A DNA stretch of 64,000 nt from Escherichia phage vB-Eco-KMB38, in sequence record OR525701.1. The stretch is one strand, 5' to 3'. The translations under genes and the position numbers were made by a program. The notes under the pieces are model-generated. The model worked only from the letters and a program-made list of their open reading frames with translations. It had not been told where the DNA came from and searched no databases. Shown piece by piece: positions 3,025 through 61,316 of the stretch; position 1 is the first letter of the stretch; every line of letters begins with the position of its first letter.

Positions 3025-3512
3025 CTCAAATTCCTGCATTCAGTAATAAAACGTTCAACTTCATTATTCTTGGCCTTTATCTTGGCTTTATGTTCTTGTA
3101 AACTACTTTTAATAAGATTAATAATGATGGCGGCGGTACCGCCGCCAATGATGCCACCAACACCACTTATGATACTAGATGCTAATAAGATAGCAATAAT
3201 ATCAACAAAACCGAAAGAACTCACCTTAGTACTGAAAAACCATATAGACGGTGCAAATATAATCCATCCTGTTATCCATTGACACTTATTGAAAAACTTT
3301 TCAAGCTCAGCTTGAGTTGTTCGTATTACTTCATCGATAGGTTGATATCCATTAATGTATCTGTTCACGATAATACCTGCTGGCTGGTCGATTTTAAATG
3401 CTTGACAATGGCGTTTCACTAAGTATGATGGACATCCTGTCCAATCTATAGAATAATATGAAATACCTTCGTCGCCATCGTCCATGTTTGTCCAGTGAAT
3501 TTTATGTATCAT
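3021..3512 (-). CDS. Hypothetical membrane protein (C-terminal TM segment, tail ERFITECRNLR)
   Basis: ORF with hydrophobic stretch IIAILLASSIISGVGGIIGGGTAAIII; no recognised homologue. Confidence 0.5.
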   Translation of the reverse strand: MIHKIHWTNMDDGDEGISYYSIDWTGCPSYLVKRHCQAFKIDQPAGIIVNRYINGYQPIDEVIRTTQAELEKFFNKCQWITGWIIFAPSIWFFSTKVSSFGFVDIIAILLASSIISGVGGIIGGGTAAIIINLIKSSLQEHKAKIKAKNNEVERFITECRNLR

Positions 3513-4198
3513 TACCAGCCTTCCATAGGGAATTCCAGATAAACTTGGGCGTTGACACGAATTTCATTGGTAATCTTTTTAACTCGGTCTGTATTACGAG
3601 ATACACGTCCGAACCAACGCCATCCATTACTAATTGCACGAGAACCAGTGTGCCATGTTTGCCAATCAAACTGAAGAAGAGTACGATCTGGAGCTTCCCA
3701 TTTCTCTAGTTCGCCTTTTTCGATTTTTTCGAGGACTTCTTTGTGCCACTGGCGATAGATAAGTTCGCCATCAGGAATCTGACTGAACTCTGCAGTTCCT
3801 GTTGCAAAATGAGTAGGACACACATCAGCGTTAACAAGACCAAGAATATGTTCAGAATGGTAACGAGGGTTGTCATAATCAGGTTGTCCTGCAGTAATAA
3901 AGTGTTGACCTACCGGAATATCAGGGCGTGGTACATCGTCATGGTGATAACCTGGGATAGCAGGGTACCAACCAGGCATCAGCATGTGGACTCGTGAATC
4001 AAATACAACCTGGTCGGTGTTCCAATCATCAGGCAAGTTCATGATGAAGCTGCGAGTAATAGGACCGCCGTTATTATAAGCAAATTCTAAACTACAGTTA
4101 AAGAACATAGGCTCGTTCTTGATTTTATCATTAGAAATACCGCCGGCAAAACCACCTACTGCACGAGCTTGACTATTAAACACTTTAGAACTATTCAT
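3512..4198 (-). CDS. Hypothetical protein (228 aa)
   Basis: Long uninterrupted ORF; start codon adjacent to stop of upstream gene; function not recognised. Confidence 0.55.
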   Translation of the reverse strand: MNSSKVFNSQARAVGGFAGGISNDKIKNEPMFFNCSLEFAYNNGGPITRSFIMNLPDDWNTDQVVFDSRVHMLMPGWYPAIPGYHHDDVPRPDIPVGQHFITAGQPDYDNPRYHSEHILGLVNADVCPTHFATGTAEFSQIPDGELIYRQWHKEVLEKIEKGELEKWEAPDRTLLQFDWQTWHTGSRAISNGWRWFGRVSRNTDRVKKITNEIRVNAQVYLEFPMEGW

Positions 4199-4199
4199 A

Positions 4200-4505
4200 T
4201 TATTTTCCTCGACATTCTTTAATGAAATTTTCTAGATTGGTAGATTCAATAGCTTTTTTACGAGCTTCTGCGTGTTCTTCTTCAGACAATTTACGTTTAT
4301 AATTGACCCAGACATTATGGTCGAAACCAGTCGTGGCATATAATATCAATGCTCCAACGAATAGCAAAAACGGCGATAAGAATACAAAACCAGGAACACC
4401 ATCCATATCGTAAGCCTTTTGTAATACTGCAACAGAAAGAGCTACGTAAAAAGGTGATGCAAGTATTGTTAAAAGACCAATTCGGTTGGTTTCTGTTAAT
4501 TTCAT
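4200..4505 (-). CDS. Hypothetical small membrane protein
   Basis: Two hydrophobic helices; GAGGAG RBS; C-terminal ENFIKECRGK; downstream of PeSL promoter. Confidence 0.55.
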   Translation of the reverse strand: MKLTETNRIGLLTILASPFYVALSVAVLQKAYDMDGVPGFVFLSPFLLFVGALILYATTGFDHNVWVNYKRKLSEEEHAEARKKAIESTNLENFIKECRGK

Positions 4506-4520
4506 AATATTCTCCTCAAG

Positions 4521-4562
4521 TTGATAGGACTACTATAACATAGTCCTATAATTGTGTAAACA
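4521..4562 (-). promoter_or_regulatory. PeSL-type early promoter cassette (GTTTAC -35, extended -10 TGTTATAGT inside 10-bp inverted repeat)
   Basis: Plus strand gataggactactataacatagtcctataattgtgtaaac; near-identical copies at 5816 and 12439. Confidence 0.6.
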
Positions 4563-4573
4563 GTTTTGTGAAG

Positions 4574-5530
4574 TTATTTGAAAGGTTTTACCATATGGAA
4601 ATTTTGTTTGAAACGTTTGACGTAATCGTCATGTCCTAAGCGTTGGTACATACTTACAACTTTGCTGTAGTTTTCCCAGGCGTATTCACGGAACCAACCG
4701 GAGGTGATGCTTGTGCAAACTTTTTCTAATGCCATCATGAAACTGGCTTCAGAGTTAATTTCAAAGTTATTAGGAATCTGAGAACGTTCTAATGCTAGTA
4801 CACATGATTCTTCATATACACCGGCCAATTTGACCATTTCTGGTAACGATTCGAACTTCTCGCGTGAGGTCATGACTTCAGAACCATCTTTCATGTAAAA
4901 TGTATAAGCCGGACGGTCTGTTAGTGCAATGGCTTCGTGAATAGTATCATGGTCATATGTGTAGATGTCATCTTTAAAGAATGCGCTTTTAGAAGTGTCA
5001 AGAATCGGGTGAGCATAGTTCAAGGTTTCTTTCTGGCGTTTCAGCATAATTTCAGTAAGTTCATCGTTCAGTGTAACACCTTTACCACGAAGATACTGGA
5101 TATGGTTCATAGTCTTTAAAAAGAATGGATTATTTTTCTTGAAACGATGAGACATTTTAATTGCAAGACATATCTCAGGAGTTGCCCAGTAAAACCCGGT
5201 CAAACGATCTTTAGTCAAATTTTTCTTGGCGTATTTTAAAAGGTCATAAGAAGACGTGAAATCTTCAGGAGTGAGTTCACCGACTAATTCACGAACATTA
5301 GTGATTGCCGGAACAATATATGCTTCAAAATGAGTTTCGCGTCCATTATGGAAGCATTTGAAAACTTGGACATCAGGGTTATCTTGGTGAACATATACAC
5401 CCATCATTTGATTTTTGAATGCATTCCAAGAACCTTGGTCCGCAATAAAGTCCCAATCGCTATTTTTGATAGCGCTAGAATCAATAAGACCATGATAGTG
5501 AAGTGCACGAGAACCAATAACTAACATCAT
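4574..5530 (-). CDS. Hypothetical protein (318 aa)
   Basis: Long ORF with GAGGAAAATATT RBS; no recognised family. Confidence 0.55.
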   Translation of the reverse strand: MMLVIGSRALHYHGLIDSSAIKNSDWDFIADQGSWNAFKNQMMGVYVHQDNPDVQVFKCFHNGRETHFEAYIVPAITNVRELVGELTPEDFTSSYDLLKYAKKNLTKDRLTGFYWATPEICLAIKMSHRFKKNNPFFLKTMNHIQYLRGKGVTLNDELTEIMLKRQKETLNYAHPILDTSKSAFFKDDIYTYDHDTIHEAIALTDRPAYTFYMKDGSEVMTSREKFESLPEMVKLAGVYEESCVLALERSQIPNNFEINSEASFMMALEKVCTSITSGWFREYAWENYSKVVSMYQRLGHDDYVKRFKQNFHMVKPFK

Positions 5531-5815: not shown

Positions 5816-5857
5816 TTGATAGGACTACTATAACATAGCCCTATCTTGTTGTAAACT
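5816..5857 (-). promoter_or_regulatory. PeSL-type early promoter cassette
   Basis: gataggactactataacatagccctatcttgttgtaaac, repeat of the element at 4521. Confidence 0.6.
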
Positions 5858-12438: not shown

Positions 12439-12478
12439 TGATAGGACTACTATAACATAGTCCTATCGTGTTGTAAAC
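12439..12478 (-). promoter_or_regulatory. PeSL-type early promoter cassette
   Basis: gataggactactataacatagtcctatcgtgttgtaaac, third copy of the 4521 element. Confidence 0.6.
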
Positions 12479-12793: not shown

Positions 12794-12833
12794 TGATAGG
12801 ATGATAGTAACACACCATCATCCTTATGTAAAC
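12794..12833 (-). promoter_or_regulatory. PeSL-type early promoter cassette (variant)
   Basis: Minus-strand sense GTTTACATAAGGATGATGGTGTGTTACTATCATCCTATCAA with GGATGAT/ATCATCC inverted repeat. Confidence 0.55.
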
Positions 12834-43293: not shown

Positions 43294-44862
43294 ATGACTA
43301 CTATCAAAACTAAAGCTCAGCTCGTAGATAAATGGAAAGAACTGCTGGAAGGTGAAGGCCTGCCGGAAATCGCTAATAGCAAGCAGGCTATTATCGCTAA
43401 AATCTTCGAAAACCAGGAAAAAGATTTCGAAGTATCCCCTGAATATAAAGACGAGAAAATCGCTCAGGCATTTGGTTCTTTCTTGACCGAAGCTGAAATT
43501 GGTGGTGACCACGGTTATAATGCTCAGAACATCGCAGCAGGTCAAACCTCTGGTGCAGTAACCCAAATTGGGCCAGCAGTTATGGGTATGGTTCGTCGTG
43601 CTATTCCTAATCTGATCGCTTTTGATATTTGTGGTGTTCAGCCTATGAACAGCCCTACCGGTCAGGTATTTGCTCTCCGTGCAGTATATGGTAAAGACCC
43701 TATCGCTGCAGGCGCTAAAGAAGCTTTCCATCCGATGTATGCCCCAGACGCGATGTTCTCTGGTCAGGGTGCTGCTAAGAAATTCCCAGCTCTGGCTGCT
43801 GACACTACTACTGTTGTAGGTGATATCTATACTCACTTCTTCCAAGAAACTGGTACTGTATATCTGCAAGCTTCTGCTGTCGTAACACTTGATTCTAGTG
43901 CGACTGATGCAGCTAAATTAGATGCAGAAGTTAAGAAACAAATGGAAGCTGGTGCACTGGTAGAAATCGCTGAAGGTATGGCTACTTCTATCGCTGAACT
44001 TCAGGAAGGTTTCAACGGTTCTACCGATAACCCATGGAATGAAATGGGCTTCCGTATCGATAAACAAGTTATTGAAGCTAAATCTCGCCAGCTGAAAGCT
44101 GCTTACTCTATCGAATTAGCACAAGACCTCCGTGCAGTACACGGTATGGATGCTGATGCTGAACTGAGTGGTATTCTGGCTACAGAAATTATGCTAGAAA
44201 TCAACCGTGAAGTTGTTGATTGGATTAACTACTCTGCACAGGTTGGTAAATCTGGTATGACCCTGACTCCGGGTTCTAAAGCTGGTGTATTTGACTTCCA
44301 GGACCCGATTGATATCCGTGGTGCTCGTTGGGCCGGTGAAAGCTTTAAATCTCTGTTGTTCCAGATTGATAAAGAAGCAGTTGAAATTGCTCGTCAAACC
44401 GGTCGTGGTGAAGGTAACTTCATTATCGCTTCCCGTAACGTAGTTAACGTACTGGCTTCAGTTGATACTGGTATTTCTTACGCTGCACAGGGTCTGGCTT
44501 CTGGTTTTAATACCGACACTACTAAGTCTGTATTTGCCGGTGTACTTGGTGGTAAATACCGCGTATACATCGACCAGTATGCTAAACAGGATTACTTCAC
44601 CGTTGGTTACAAAGGCGCTAACGAAATGGATGCAGGTATTTACTATGCTCCTTACGTTGCACTTACCCCACTGCGTGGTTCCGATCCTAAGAACTTCCAG
44701 CCGGTAATGGGCTTTAAAACTCGTTACGGTATCGGTGTTAACCCGTTTGCTGAAAGTTCCCTGCAGGCTCCAGGTGCTCGCATCCAGTCCGGTATGCCGT
44801 CTATCCTGAACAGCCTTGGTAAGAACGCTTACTTCCGCCGTGTATATGTAAAAGGCATCTAA
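43294..44862 (+). CDS. 23: Major capsid protein
   Basis: 522 aa; MTTIKTKAQLVDKWKELLEGEG N-terminal propeptide. Confidence 0.97.
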   Translation: MTTIKTKAQLVDKWKELLEGEGLPEIANSKQAIIAKIFENQEKDFEVSPEYKDEKIAQAFGSFLTEAEIGGDHGYNAQNIAAGQTSGAVTQIGPAVMGMVRRAIPNLIAFDICGVQPMNSPTGQVFALRAVYGKDPIAAGAKEAFHPMYAPDAMFSGQGAAKKFPALAADTTTVVGDIYTHFFQETGTVYLQASAVVTLDSSATDAAKLDAEVKKQMEAGALVEIAEGMATSIAELQEGFNGSTDNPWNEMGFRIDKQVIEAKSRQLKAAYSIELAQDLRAVHGMDADAELSGILATEIMLEINREVVDWINYSAQVGKSGMTLTPGSKAGVFDFQDPIDIRGARWAGESFKSLLFQIDKEAVEIARQTGRGEGNFIIASRNVVNVLASVDTGISYAAQGLASGFNTDTTKSVFAGVLGGKYRVYIDQYAKQDYFTVGYKGANEMDAGIYYAPYVALTPLRGSDPKNFQPVMGFKTRYGIGVNPFAESSLQAPGARIQSGMPSILNSLGKNAYFRRVYVKGI

Positions 44863-44886
44863 TCTTAATTGATTAAATCTTATTTT

Positions 44887-44912
44887 GGGAGACTTCGGTC
44901 TCCCATTTTTGG
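44887..44912 (+). terminator. Rho-independent terminator after gene 23
   Basis: gggagacttcggtctccc followed by atttttggtttt. Confidence 0.7.
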
Positions 44913-44914
44913 TT

Positions 44915-45184
44915 TTATTTCTGTGCAATTTCGATGTAAGTTTTCAAAATATTTTGCCAATTAGGCATACCTTCTTGGACATATGCTGGAGAACCGTCTT
45001 TGTTTTTGAATGATGCAAGTTTATCAGTGGCCCAATAACCTTTAGCTCGAGCTTCAGAATCAACTTTCATCCATACTTTGTTGAAGGCATTACCATTAAC
45101 TTTTGCACCATATTTTTCTACTAACTTAACGGCTTCAGTTTCCAGAACTTTTAAAGTATCTCGTAAGAAACGTGCTTTAGTCAT
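44915..45184 (-). CDS. Hypothetical protein (89 aa) in the 23-24 intergenic slot
   Basis: ORF with GAGGAGTAAACAAA RBS and its own early promoter; T4 carries segD at this position. Confidence 0.55.
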   Translation of the reverse strand: MTKARFLRDTLKVLETEAVKLVEKYGAKVNGNAFNKVWMKVDSEARAKGYWATDKLASFKNKDGSPAYVQEGMPNWQNILKTYIEIAQK

Positions 45185-45204
45185 TTTGTTTACTCCTCTG
45201 TAGT

Positions 45205-45244
45205 TGATAAGTCTATAGTATCACATACCAAATACGTTGTAAAC
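45205..45244 (-). promoter_or_regulatory. PeSL-type early promoter cassette
   Basis: Minus-strand sense GTTTACAACGTATTTGGTATGTGATACTATAGACTTATCAAC. Confidence 0.55.
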
Positions 45245-45250
45245 AATCTT

Positions 45251-45258
45251 TATAAATA
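45251..45258 (+). promoter_or_regulatory. T4 late promoter TATAAATA (gene 24)
   Basis: Exact TATAAATA about 28 nt upstream of the gene 24 ATG. Confidence 0.6.
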
Positions 45259-45285: not shown

Positions 45286-46569
45286 ATGAGTAAAATCCAA
45301 AAATTATTGCGTGAATCTACAACGTCTACTAGCAACTCAATTGGTCGCCCAAATCTCGTTGCTTTGACTCGCGCTACGACTAAATTAATATATTCTGACA
45401 TTGTAGCAACACAAAGAACTAATCAACCTGTTGCTGCTTTTTATGGTATCAAATATCTTAACCCAGATAATGAATTCACATTTAAAACTGGTGCTACTTA
45501 TGCGGGTGAAGTTGGATATGTAGACCGAGAAAAAATTACTGAGCTCACAGAAGAATCAAAAGTCACACTAAATAAAGGTGATTTTTTCAAATATAATAAT
45601 ATCGTCTATAAAGTGTTAGAAGATACACCATTTGCAGATATTCAAGAAAGTGATCTAGAATTAGCTCTTCAGATTGCAGTCGTTCATTTAAAGGTACGGT
45701 TATTTTCAGATGCAGCGGTAACAAGCAAATTTGAAAGCTCCGATAGCGAAATTTCTGATGCAAGATTCCAGATTAATAAATGGCAAACTTCAGTCAAATC
45801 TCGTAAACTTAAAACCGGCCTCACGGTTGAATTAGCGCAAGATTTGGAAGCGAATGGATTTGATGCCCCTAACTTCTTAGAAGATTTGCTTGCTACTGAA
45901 ATGGCAGATGAAATTAATAAAGATATTCTTCAGTCTTTAATTACTGTATCGAAACGTTATAAAGTTACTGGAATTACTGACACTGGATTTATTGACTTGA
46001 GCTATGCATCCGCTCCAGAAGCAGGTCGTTCATTATATCGAATGGTGTGTGAAATGGTATCGCACATTCAAAAAGAGACAACTTATACTGCAACGTTTTG
46101 TGTAGCCTCAGCTCGTGCAGCTGCTATTCTTGCTGCTTCCGGTTGGTTAAAACATAAGCCAGAAGATGACAAGTATCTTTCACAAAATGCTTATGGATTC
46201 TTGGCAAATGGATTACCTCTTTACTGCGATACCAACAGCCCGTTAGATTATGTTATTGTGGGTGTTGTGGAAAATCTCGGTGAAAAAGAAATTGTAGGGT
46301 CCATCTTTTATGCTCCATACACTGAAGGAGTAGATTTAGATGACCCGGAACATGTTGGTGCATTTAAAGTTGTAGTTGATCCAGAAAGCTTGCAACCGTC
46401 TATCGGATTATTGGTTAGATATGCTTTATCAGCAAATCCTTACACAGTAGCAAAAGACGAAAAAGAAGCGAGAATAATTGATGGTGGGGACATGGATAAA
46501 ATGGCAGGACGTTCAGACTTGTCTGTTTTATTAGGTGTTAAACTACCAAAAATTATCATTGATGAATGA
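45286..46569 (+). CDS. 24: Capsid vertex protein
   Basis: 427 aa, paralogue of gp23. Confidence 0.95.
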   Translation: MSKIQKLLRESTTSTSNSIGRPNLVALTRATTKLIYSDIVATQRTNQPVAAFYGIKYLNPDNEFTFKTGATYAGEVGYVDREKITELTEESKVTLNKGDFFKYNNIVYKVLEDTPFADIQESDLELALQIAVVHLKVRLFSDAAVTSKFESSDSEISDARFQINKWQTSVKSRKLKTGLTVELAQDLEANGFDAPNFLEDLLATEMADEINKDILQSLITVSKRYKVTGITDTGFIDLSYASAPEAGRSLYRMVCEMVSHIQKETTYTATFCVASARAAAILAASGWLKHKPEDDKYLSQNAYGFLANGLPLYCDTNSPLDYVIVGVVENLGEKEIVGSIFYAPYTEGVDLDDPEHVGAFKVVVDPESLQPSIGLLVRYALSANPYTVAKDEKEARIIDGGDMDKMAGRSDLSVLLGVKLPKIIIDE

Positions 46570-46600
46570 AAAAAAAAAGGGACCTTACGGTCCCTTTTTT
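46570..46600. terminator. Bidirectional rho-independent terminator
   Basis: A-run, hairpin gggaccttacggtccc, T-run; sits between convergent genes 24 and rnlB. Confidence 0.7.
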
Positions 46601-46602
46601 CG

Positions 46603-47601
46603 TTATGATACTAATTCAATCCATGCAGGACGCAGAACATCTTGCACCATTCGGACTAATTCTTTCTTAACAAGATTCGGATTATCAGATGATGCTAATA
46701 CAATACCTTCACGAGAAGTTTCTTCCAGAATATCTTGAACAGTCAGTCCCATCACTTTGCCAAAATCTTTTGGCGTTACAACCCCAATCTTAGAAATCAC
46801 ATTATTAACACGATTTAATGTAACATAACAAGCTAGAACATCAAGCAAGTTTTTGTCAATTTCGGTTAATGGAACCTGAGTTTTAACAGGTTTATCAGAC
46901 TTTTTCTTTTCACTGAATTTAGAGTTCTTGCACTTAATAGCTACACGAGTACCGTTTGGCAGCCATTTAGGGAAACAAGGCTTCAGAACATAACCTTCTG
47001 CAGTATTATTACCAATAACATTAGCATCAAATACACAATTATTTGCTTCGACAAGGTCTTCTGACGCAGTAGCATTATAAGCGGCTAAGACAGAATCAAG
47101 GTCGTTTGGAATCATGATAAGAGCATCAAATGTTCCGCGACCAAGCATCGGGGCCATTTTAAAACCGAATTCATTACAGAAATCTTGCATTTCATAATCG
47201 GTCAAATACGTATTATCACCACTTTCTGTATTGATAAGGATATCGAACACATAAAAATCTTTTTCACCGTAGTCAACACCTTTCTGGATTCCACCACCGG
47301 CGAATTCACCGAATACTTGATACGATACGGCTCGAGCTGTGTACATGAATTCCTGAACAGCTTTAATAGCTTTATCATACTTCTTGAGTACGATTTCATA
47401 ACCATAAAAATCTTCTGCTGGAAGAATAGGGCCTGTGCGCTTGGCGCATGTGACGTTGTCACGTTCAATTATTAACGAGAAGTTGGTCCCATGGATTTTC
47501 TCACGTGCTACCCAAACACCAGTAGTCAAACCATTAGTGTAGAGTTTTTCAATAAACTTAGAGTTGTAGTGGTTTTCAAGACTGCTGTATTTCTTAAACA
47601 T
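46603..47601 (-). CDS. rnlB: RNA ligase 2
   Basis: [20 protein letters not shown]...KIHGTNFSL (lysine nucleotidyltransferase motif) closely matches T4 Rnl2. Confidence 0.95.
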
Positions 47602-60962: not shown

Positions 60963-61295
60963 TTATTTACGGAATGAAAGGAATGCTGGTGCTCGGAATG
61001 GAGTATCATCTTTAGAGTATTTAACTAATACGACCATTGGTACCTCTGTTTCTAAATGTCCTGTCAATACACCGATAAAAATTTGATCAGTGTGCTCAGG
61101 GTCACGAAAGTTTTTAAGAGGTTCCATAGCAATATGGAATGCACCTGGGAATACTCGATTCAATTCGTCAATCACAGCTTCGTTAAAAACATCATCCGCT
61201 GGGATAACATCTTCAACTACTAGTTCTTGACCATTAAAGCGAAGCATAGATTTCATAACGTTTTCCTCATGTTGTTGATAGGATGATAGTATCAC
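60963..61295 (-). CDS. Hypothetical protein (110 aa) at the alt.-3 position
   Basis: ORF with GAGGAAAACG RBS and own early promoter. Confidence 0.55.
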   Translation of the reverse strand: MILSSYQQHEENVMKSMLRFNGQELVVEDVIPADDVFNEAVIDELNRVFPGAFHIAMEPLKNFRDPEHTDQIFIGVLTGHLETEVPMVVLVKYSKDDTPFRAPAFLSFRK

Positions 61296-61316
61296 ACATC
61301 CATGTGTTTGTAAACT
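61276..61316 (-). promoter_or_regulatory. PeSL-type early promoter cassette
   Basis: Minus-strand sense GTTTACAAACACATGGATGTGTGATACTATCATCCTATCAAC. Confidence 0.55.

Follow-up and report, generated by a model that had tools for sequence, protein, structure and literature searches.

The 89-codon gene between the major capsid gene 23 and the capsid vertex gene 24 of Escherichia phage vB-Eco-KMB38 is a genuine gene. It is selected, dispensable and laterally mobile, it has an early-class promoter, and its product resembles neither a nuclease nor any other fold that we recognise. Judged from sequence, a binding protein that would serve host takeover or counter-defence is the most likely reading of its role, and we put our confidence in it at about the halfway mark. 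Over 200 public genomes already list the ORF product as a conserved hypothetical protein; what is new are the swapping of its alleles, the multiple states of the slot that it occupies and a confident predicted fold without recognised relatives.

The analysed window (64,000 nt of sequence record OR525701.1) comes from an RB69-like T-even phage of the genus Mosigvirus. The 801 bases round the ORF are 100% identical in Escherichia phages PTK and AlbertHofmann and share more than 99% identity with many other Mosigvirus genomes, and at the amino acid level gp23 and gp24 of the window are 94.6% and 95.1% identical to their T4 counterparts. A preliminary description of this DNA had placed an 89-aa minus-strand ORF between genes 23 and 24; both its position and the protein sequence quoted there agree with the ORF list and the sequence. 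Among 5,000 shuffles of the 423-bp intergenic stretch, 22 contained an ORF of at least 89 codons by chance. The G+C content of the ORF (35% versus 38% for the window) is not atypical, and no paralogue was found within the 64-kb window. Rfam analysis of the region identified no RNA family, only sub-threshold matches to terminator hairpins. Further sub-threshold Rfam matches, to MicX (31.9 bits, gathering score 75) and Atu_C8, lie at 46496-46667 on the convergent gene 24/rnlB junction; they most likely reflect a bidirectional terminator hairpin, which is annotated there in phage SA79RD. The locus comprises the following features:

43294-44862, plus strand: gene 23, major capsid protein, flanking core gene
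44886-44905, plus strand: intrinsic terminator of gene 23, a GC-rich hairpin TGGGAGAC-TTCG-GTCTCCCA followed by a T-run (terminator scan)
44915-45184, minus strand: 89-aa coding sequence with ATG start, phrog_6003 member, allele type A (ORF list, sequence)
45193-45198, minus strand: Shine-Dalgarno sequence GAGGAG, 8 nt before the ATG of the ORF (sequence)
45215-45244, minus strand: putative T4-type early (sigma-70) promoter, GTTTAC-N15-TGATACTAT (promoter scan, pattern count)
45215-45220, minus strand: -10 hexamer TACTAT of this promoter, within the extended -10 element TGATACTAT
45239-45244, minus strand: -35 box GTTTAC of this promoter
45251-45258, plus strand: late promoter TATAAATA (T4 type) for gene 24, where the cassette ends on its upstream side (sequence)
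45286-46569, plus strand: gene 24, capsid vertex protein, flanking core gene

The cassette in the window lies exactly between the gene 23 terminator hairpin, which forms its 3' boundary, and the late promoter of gene 24, which adjoins the -35 box of the divergent early promoter. An equivalent UUCG hairpin is found in T2 and T4, both of which lack the ORF, and the late promoter is annotated in SA79RD and has the same position relative to gene 24 in T2, T4 and JS10. In T2, as in most Tequatrovirus and Klebsiella T4-like phages, the gap between genes 23 and 24 spans only about 83 bp, which accommodate a terminator hairpin with a UUCG loop, the T-run behind it, and the late promoter TATAAATA and ribosome-binding site of gene 24. 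The window's hairpin has a fold energy of -16.8 kcal/mol on the plus and -13.5 kcal/mol on the minus strand. Past the hairpin, the ORF strand reads AAAATAAGATTT and shows no U-tract, so that some antisense read-through into gene 23 is possible; the transcript of the ORF may thus have a role beyond coding.

Across T4-like phages we found the slot empty (T2), filled with segD (T4), filled with one of two allele types of the ORF, A or B, or filled with type B and segD together (phage 04086). In T4, segD takes up this place in the orientation of the ORF, and 53 records have segD there. The preliminary description was right to equate the slot with the T4 segD site, where segD likewise lies on the minus strand, and its term hot spot is justified by a plasticity that ranges from segD in T4 to nothing in T2. 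The ORF is not an alternative to segD, since the Dhakavirus phage 04086 has both side by side: the ORF homologue is followed, 3 nt on, by a 223-aa protein that is 57% identical to T4 SegD. The two genes are therefore independent occupants of the slot. In the record of 04086 (OR842557), this SegD-like GIY-YIG protein (3271-3942 in our locus L004) is unannotated, and gene 23 is annotated too short (4002-5111, while its ORF runs to 5561). In the gene 23/24 junction, nature offers a compact case of a conserved structural module with a permissive slot, which could serve as a safe insertion site for the engineering of T-even phages.

The claim that the ORF has its own early promoter was confirmed by a pattern count. 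The pattern GTTTAC-N15-TGATACTAT has eight matches in the 64-kb window, every one of them on the minus strand (993-1022, 1734-1763, 4532-4561, 5827-5856, 12449-12478, 12804-12833, 45215-45244 and 61286-61315), versus 0.07 occurrences expected, and the copies share an extended motif. In all eight, CTATCAA (or TTATCAA or TCATCAA) marks the transcript start 3-4 nt past the -10 hexamer, and a Shine-Dalgarno sequence with an ATG follows 20-35 nt downstream. The site upstream of the ORF is annotated as an early promoter in phage SA79RD. At the loci of JS10, EP01, 04086, P0005 and P0016, both promoter boxes (-35 and -10) have been retained in spite of divergence in the spacer between them, which argues for constraint on the promoter, and homologous T4-like loci have a GGAG-type motif at the position equivalent to the window's Shine-Dalgarno sequence. 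Early transcription of the ORF is thus well supported by sequence, and the protein is probably made in the first minutes of infection. A literature search for Mosigvirus transcriptome or expression data found none.

Several of the eight early promoters contain a perfect inverted repeat of 8-10 bp (for example GATAGGACTA...TAGTCCTATC) that brackets the -10 hexamer, so that bases at the beginning of the transcript pair with the spacer's 3' half. Such repeats are found on the minus strand at 4532-4561, 12449-12478 and 12804-12833, with a weaker one at 5827-5856. The length of the two longest (9 and 10 bp) was reached in 0 or 1 of 2,000 spacer shuffles, that of the 8-bp repeat at 12804 in 45 of 2,000 and that of the weaker 6-bp repeat in 107 of 2,000. 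These repeats could represent an operator or a cruciform-forming element. The promoter of the 89-aa ORF has no such inverted repeat.

The ORF had been called an ORFan, and this label has to be dropped. Its product matches phrog_6003 of PHROGs v4, a family of unknown function, over its entire length (E = 3.4e-45, 153 bits, residues 1-89 versus profile positions 1-90 of 90), and tblastn detected homologues in 239 phage records. About 120 of these are at least 90% identical and belong to Mosigvirus, and about 119, from Dhakavirus, Gaprivervirus and some Tequatrovirus phages, are 30-38% identical. Some 116 records contain an intact copy with more than 95% identity. GenBank lists family proteins as 'hypothetical protein' of the Mosigvirus phages PTK, AlbertHofmann, PhAPEC2 and SA79RD (SA79RD_184), and as RB69ORF188c/189c. 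In the literature, we found no mention of RB69ORF188c/189c, phrog_6003 or the JS10 and VR20 accessions; T4-like phages lie outside the coverage of a transposon-mutagenesis preprint.

In all four divergent loci that we inspected (JS10 and 04086 of Dhakavirus, VR20 of Gaprivervirus and EP01 of Tequatrovirus), the homologue occupies the same slot in antisense orientation, as it does in three metagenomic contigs. More distant members (29-38% identity) are located elsewhere. In rV5-like genomes (ABPH49 of the Vequintavirinae and contigs L015, L019 and L020) a member lies within long arrays of small, co-oriented, uncharacterised genes, in the siphovirus-like contig L016 it adjoins a lambda-J-type tail gene, and contig L017 holds one further distant member. 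Tandem paralogues of gene 24 were observed in Dhakavirus/Gaprivervirus-type loci (L002, L003, L010 and L013), the two copies being 56-58% and about 68-71% identical to the single gp24 of the window.

A profile search of 1.84 billion representative proteins returned nine matches, seven of which belong to the family if the truncated P0019 and the chimeric P0020 are counted. P0020 is a 160-aa ENA protein of which only the last 32 residues are JS10-type sequence, and it was not accepted as a regular member. The giant repeat proteins P0023 and P0024 were rejected as relatives because their folds are incompatible: they consist of Big_2 or filamin-type Ig repeats, whose weak per-repeat scores add up. 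A third iteration of the search added only two members, of 87 and 88 aa. The family is thus small, phage-restricted and single-domain, and it spans at least three Tevenvirinae genera, rV5-like phages and a siphovirus-like contig; among the 1.8 billion representative proteins its members measure only 84-93 aa. The 90-aa P0006 carries the JGI name 'NADPH-dependent curcumin reductase CurA', an evident annotation error.

To assess selection we computed pairwise Nei-Gojobori dN/dS ratios, limiting the deeper pairs to those in which dS was not saturated. The ratio was 0.07 for JS10/EP01, 0.10 for JS10/04086, 0.17 within Mosigvirus and 0.12-0.33 for the deeper pairs. Values of 0.07-0.33 indicate that the protein is under purifying selection.

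Two allele types, only about 30% identical to each other, can be distinguished: type A in Mosigvirus and the contigs P0004-P0006, type B in JS10, VR20, P0014 and P0016. The phylogeny of the ORF disagrees with that of the flanking genes. EP01 (OM135583; L005) has a Tequatrovirus backbone, its gp23 and gp24 being 95.8% and 99.5% identical to those of T4. Its ORF is 93% identical to that of JS10, a Dhakavirus-type allele, and the gp24 proteins of JS10 and EP01 are only 70% identical. Judged by these identities, the EP01 cassette clearly reached the slot by a recent lateral transfer. EP01 and JS10 DNA are 82-98% identical from about -215 to +320 relative to the ATG, with lower identity deeper in both capsid genes, and this stretch looks like the recombination tract that carried the cassette. 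The P0006 contig combines JS10-type capsid genes (92%) with a type A ORF (62% identical to that of the window, 28% to that of JS10). On these comparisons, two old allele types circulate among different capsid backbones.

The gene appears dispensable on two lines of sequence evidence. T2 and T4 lack it, though they share about 95% identity with the window in gp23 and gp24, and it is broken in the records of RB69 and mogra. In the RB69 record NC_004928 (5292-5532 in L006), the gene is divided into RB69ORF188c and RB69ORF189c by two indels, +1 and -1, between which mismatches cluster. The split may be natural, making the gene a pseudogene, or may stem from a mistake in the sequence of 2003. Phage mogra has a similarly split copy (mogra_94/95); in phage 310Ecol104PP the annotated homologue is truncated to 64 aa. 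Nearly all other copies among the approximately 240 genomes found by tblastn are intact.

The 89-aa protein has a mass of 10.2 kDa, a pI of 9.6 and a GRAVY score of -0.58, and it contains neither cysteine nor a hydrophobic segment. In 12 of 13 diverse family members the pI is likewise basic (9.3-9.9). At about 30% identity, K3, F6, L14, L21, N30, G31, N32, N35, A45, S57 and Q70 remain invariant or nearly so; in the model they form a hydrophobic stripe and, where helix 2 begins, a polar loop (NGNxxN). AlphaFold2 predicted a helix-helix-beta-hairpin-helix fold with high confidence for both allele types. The type A model (pLDDT 89.5) comprises helices at residues 3-25, 31-48 and 76-88 and strands at 56-60 and 66-70, and the type B model (pLDDT 93.6) has the same topology. 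The only significant match in a BFVD structure search was another family member (TM 0.77). Weak Foldseek matches in the PDB include the winged-helix domains DnaD-N, ORC2 WHD, 3r0a and LOTUS.

Sequence searches of Pfam, NCBIfam, PADLOC and the PDB yielded nothing consistent, the PADLOC and NCBIfam matches being marginal and different between members. Neither sequence nor predicted structure matched known defence systems or characterised small phage proteins, as represented by curated models and solved structures. DUF4859 (Pfam E = 0.003, below the curated cut-off) was found in only 3 of the 14 members scanned and was treated as chance. A PDB sequence match to the BRCT region of RFC1 (E = 0.065) was set aside: it reflects a short helix and a 'GxKVxGN' likeness, and the predicted topology is not that of a BRCT domain.

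None of the 14 members matched HNH, LAGLIDADG or other homing endonuclease families in Pfam, no structural match to such enzymes was found, and GIY-YIG gave no Pfam match even at E <= 10. In BLASTP against T4 SegD, only 17 residues aligned (E = 0.022 for a single pairwise comparison). As the product neither resembles SegD nor shows a domain or fold typical of nucleases, we reject the possibility that the ORF encodes a homing endonuclease or a SegD remnant. The absence of nuclease motifs noted in the preliminary description extends to Pfam and structure searches, and the predicted model lacks the homing-endonuclease fold that would have spoken against its proposal of a host-takeover or anti-defence factor.

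Taken together, the locus can be read as a self-contained accessory cassette of a putative early promoter, a ribosome-binding site and an 89-codon gene, which lies antisense and is bounded by the terminator hairpin of gene 23 and the late promoter of gene 24. Its transcription by host RNA polymerase would most likely take place in the first minutes of infection, yielding a small, soluble, basic, non-enzymatic protein with the predicted helix-helix-beta-hairpin-helix fold. This protein would bind a host component stoichiometrically. Its small, single-domain structure without a catalytic motif suggests a binding and not a catalytic role, the target to be expected from the conserved positive charge is polyanionic or acidic (nucleic acid, for instance, or a nucleic-acid-associated protein), and the invariant polar residues (the NGNxxN loop and Q70) are consistent with one specific binding site. 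The benefit of the protein may depend on the host strain, as would be expected for host takeover or counter-defence, because some phages lack the gene or have a broken copy, others carry it almost without exception, and two alleles of it are exchanged. Recombination in the flanking capsid genes would spread the cassette between phages. Several points weigh against this explanation: mechanism is poorly predicted by a basic pI or a compact fold, the hairpin lacks a U-tract on the ORF strand, the RB69 frameshifts could be sequence errors instead of natural loss, and the low dN/dS within allele types is not the signature of a fast arms race. The host-takeover or anti-defence proposal of the preliminary description is reasonable and agrees with the early-type promoter, the dispensability, the mobility and the small size of the gene; homology, structure and literature searches yielded support for no particular activity or target.

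In a more specific form of the proposal, the protein would represent a new class of phage inhibitor with a fold of its own, directed against a strain-variable E. coli defence or a nucleic-acid-associated host factor; we regard this as possible, though doubtful. If it is true, the two allele types would match different variants of the host target. Should the protein inhibit a defence or some essential function of the host, the known phage counter-measures would gain both a new fold and a new target. Nearly all RB69-like and JS10-like coliphages carry the gene, and an inhibitor would help to explain differences in host range among those used therapeutically.

Other readings account for part of these observations. 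The protein might bind nucleic acid to regulate the phage's own programme, for example as a small RNA- or DNA-binding protein that adjusts early or late gene expression, and not target a host factor at all, which we consider unlikely; this reading would suit a net positive charge that is kept across members only about 30% identical, the several winged-helix domains among the weak PDB matches and the location of the gene next to the two most highly expressed late genes. Alternatively, the ORF might be selfish cargo or the remnant of a homing-endonuclease unit, hitch-hiking in a seg-targeted slot at no benefit to the phage. SegD does occupy this slot in T4 and about 50 other phages, in 04086 a SegD homologue starts 3 nt past the stop codon of the ORF on the same strand, and the cassette is laterally exchanged. 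However, the ORF product shows no similarity to SegD, the gene is under strong purifying selection and intact in almost all of about 240 genomes, neither the other inspected copies nor the T2-type empty sites have an endonuclease nearby, and family members also occur far from any capsid gene. We therefore judge this explanation very unlikely.

Little probability likewise remains for the idea that the early antisense transcript itself is the functional product, an 'anti-late' RNA whose read-through damps premature expression of gene 23, with the protein being secondary. In its favour, the hairpin on the ORF strand is followed by AAAATAAGATTT instead of a U-tract, and the gene is antisense in every T4-like locus examined. 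But dN/dS well below 1 and the invariant residues show that the protein itself is selected, VR20 has a T-run past the hairpin on the ORF strand, the gene is co-directional with its neighbours in rV5-like genomes, and T2 lacks an antisense promoter at this site. That the ORF is non-expressed or decaying, and its annotation an artefact, is scarcely credible: different genera share the promoter and the Shine-Dalgarno sequence, purifying selection acts on the gene, about 116 records have it intact with more than 95% identity, and both allele types give confident structure models. These outweigh the frameshift-split copies in the RB69 and mogra records, the truncated 64-aa homologue in 310Ecol104PP and a literature search that found no experimental evidence of expression. 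A host-directed binding protein thus remains the most likely reading.

Among known systems, T4 segD, which encodes a free-standing GIY-YIG homing endonuclease, is the closest in position. Like the ORF it is antisense, has a promoter of its own and is flanked by the UUCG hairpin of gene 23 and the late promoter of gene 24; the products differ, SegD having 223 aa and the ORF product 89 aa with no GIY-YIG domain or fold. A second parallel is provided by the ORFan cassettes flanked by PeSLs (promoter-early stem-loops) that were described in T4-type phages, with an early-promoter consensus TTTACW-N17-TAYWAT quoted for the T4/PST pair (Arbiol 2010; Comeau 2014; PMC2839356; PMC4122927). The cassette resembles them in its strong early promoter of this type, its small non-essential ORF, its stem-loop and its location at a site of insertion, deletion and replacement. 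In contrast to a composite PeSL motif, in which a stem-loop terminator adjoins the promoter directly and tandem copies flank the ORF, promoter and stem-loop lie at opposite ends of the ORF: upstream of the promoter no stem-loop was found, and the only hairpin, at the far end, is the gene 23 terminator, which is oriented for the other strand. In addition, the one exchange that we mapped (EP01/JS10) extends into the capsid genes, as ordinary homologous recombination would. The anatomy of the cassette therefore does not support a pure PeSL mini-circle origin. Like a 'moron' of lambdoid phages, the cassette consists of one gene that brings its own promoter and interrupts a late structural operon between two of its genes, but its G+C content is not atypical, and its putative transcription is antisense and early and does not start from a prophage. 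Novel ORFs of T4-like phages have previously been argued not to be moron-like (Nolan et al., PMC1524935).

A screen of early proteins of the Mosigvirus phage AV110 covered 45 proteins chosen by homology to T4 early proteins, and its toxicity hit Emp/Gp94 is a 109-aa protein different from the ORF product (bioRxiv 10.64898/2026.09.14.751387). It is the only systematic toxicity screen of Mosigvirus early proteins that we found in the literature. Since its candidates were picked by T4 homology and the ORF has no T4 homologue, the ORF was probably outside the screen. T4 Dmd, Arn, AsiA and MotB, like Emp/Gp94, are small early accessory proteins of T-even phages that bind a host factor. We detected no sequence or structural relation between these proteins or Emp/Gp94 and the ORF product. 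What the product does share with such small host-factor binders is a length in the range of about 60-110 aa, putative early expression, the lack of an enzymatic domain, variable presence among relatives and a fold without annotated relatives.
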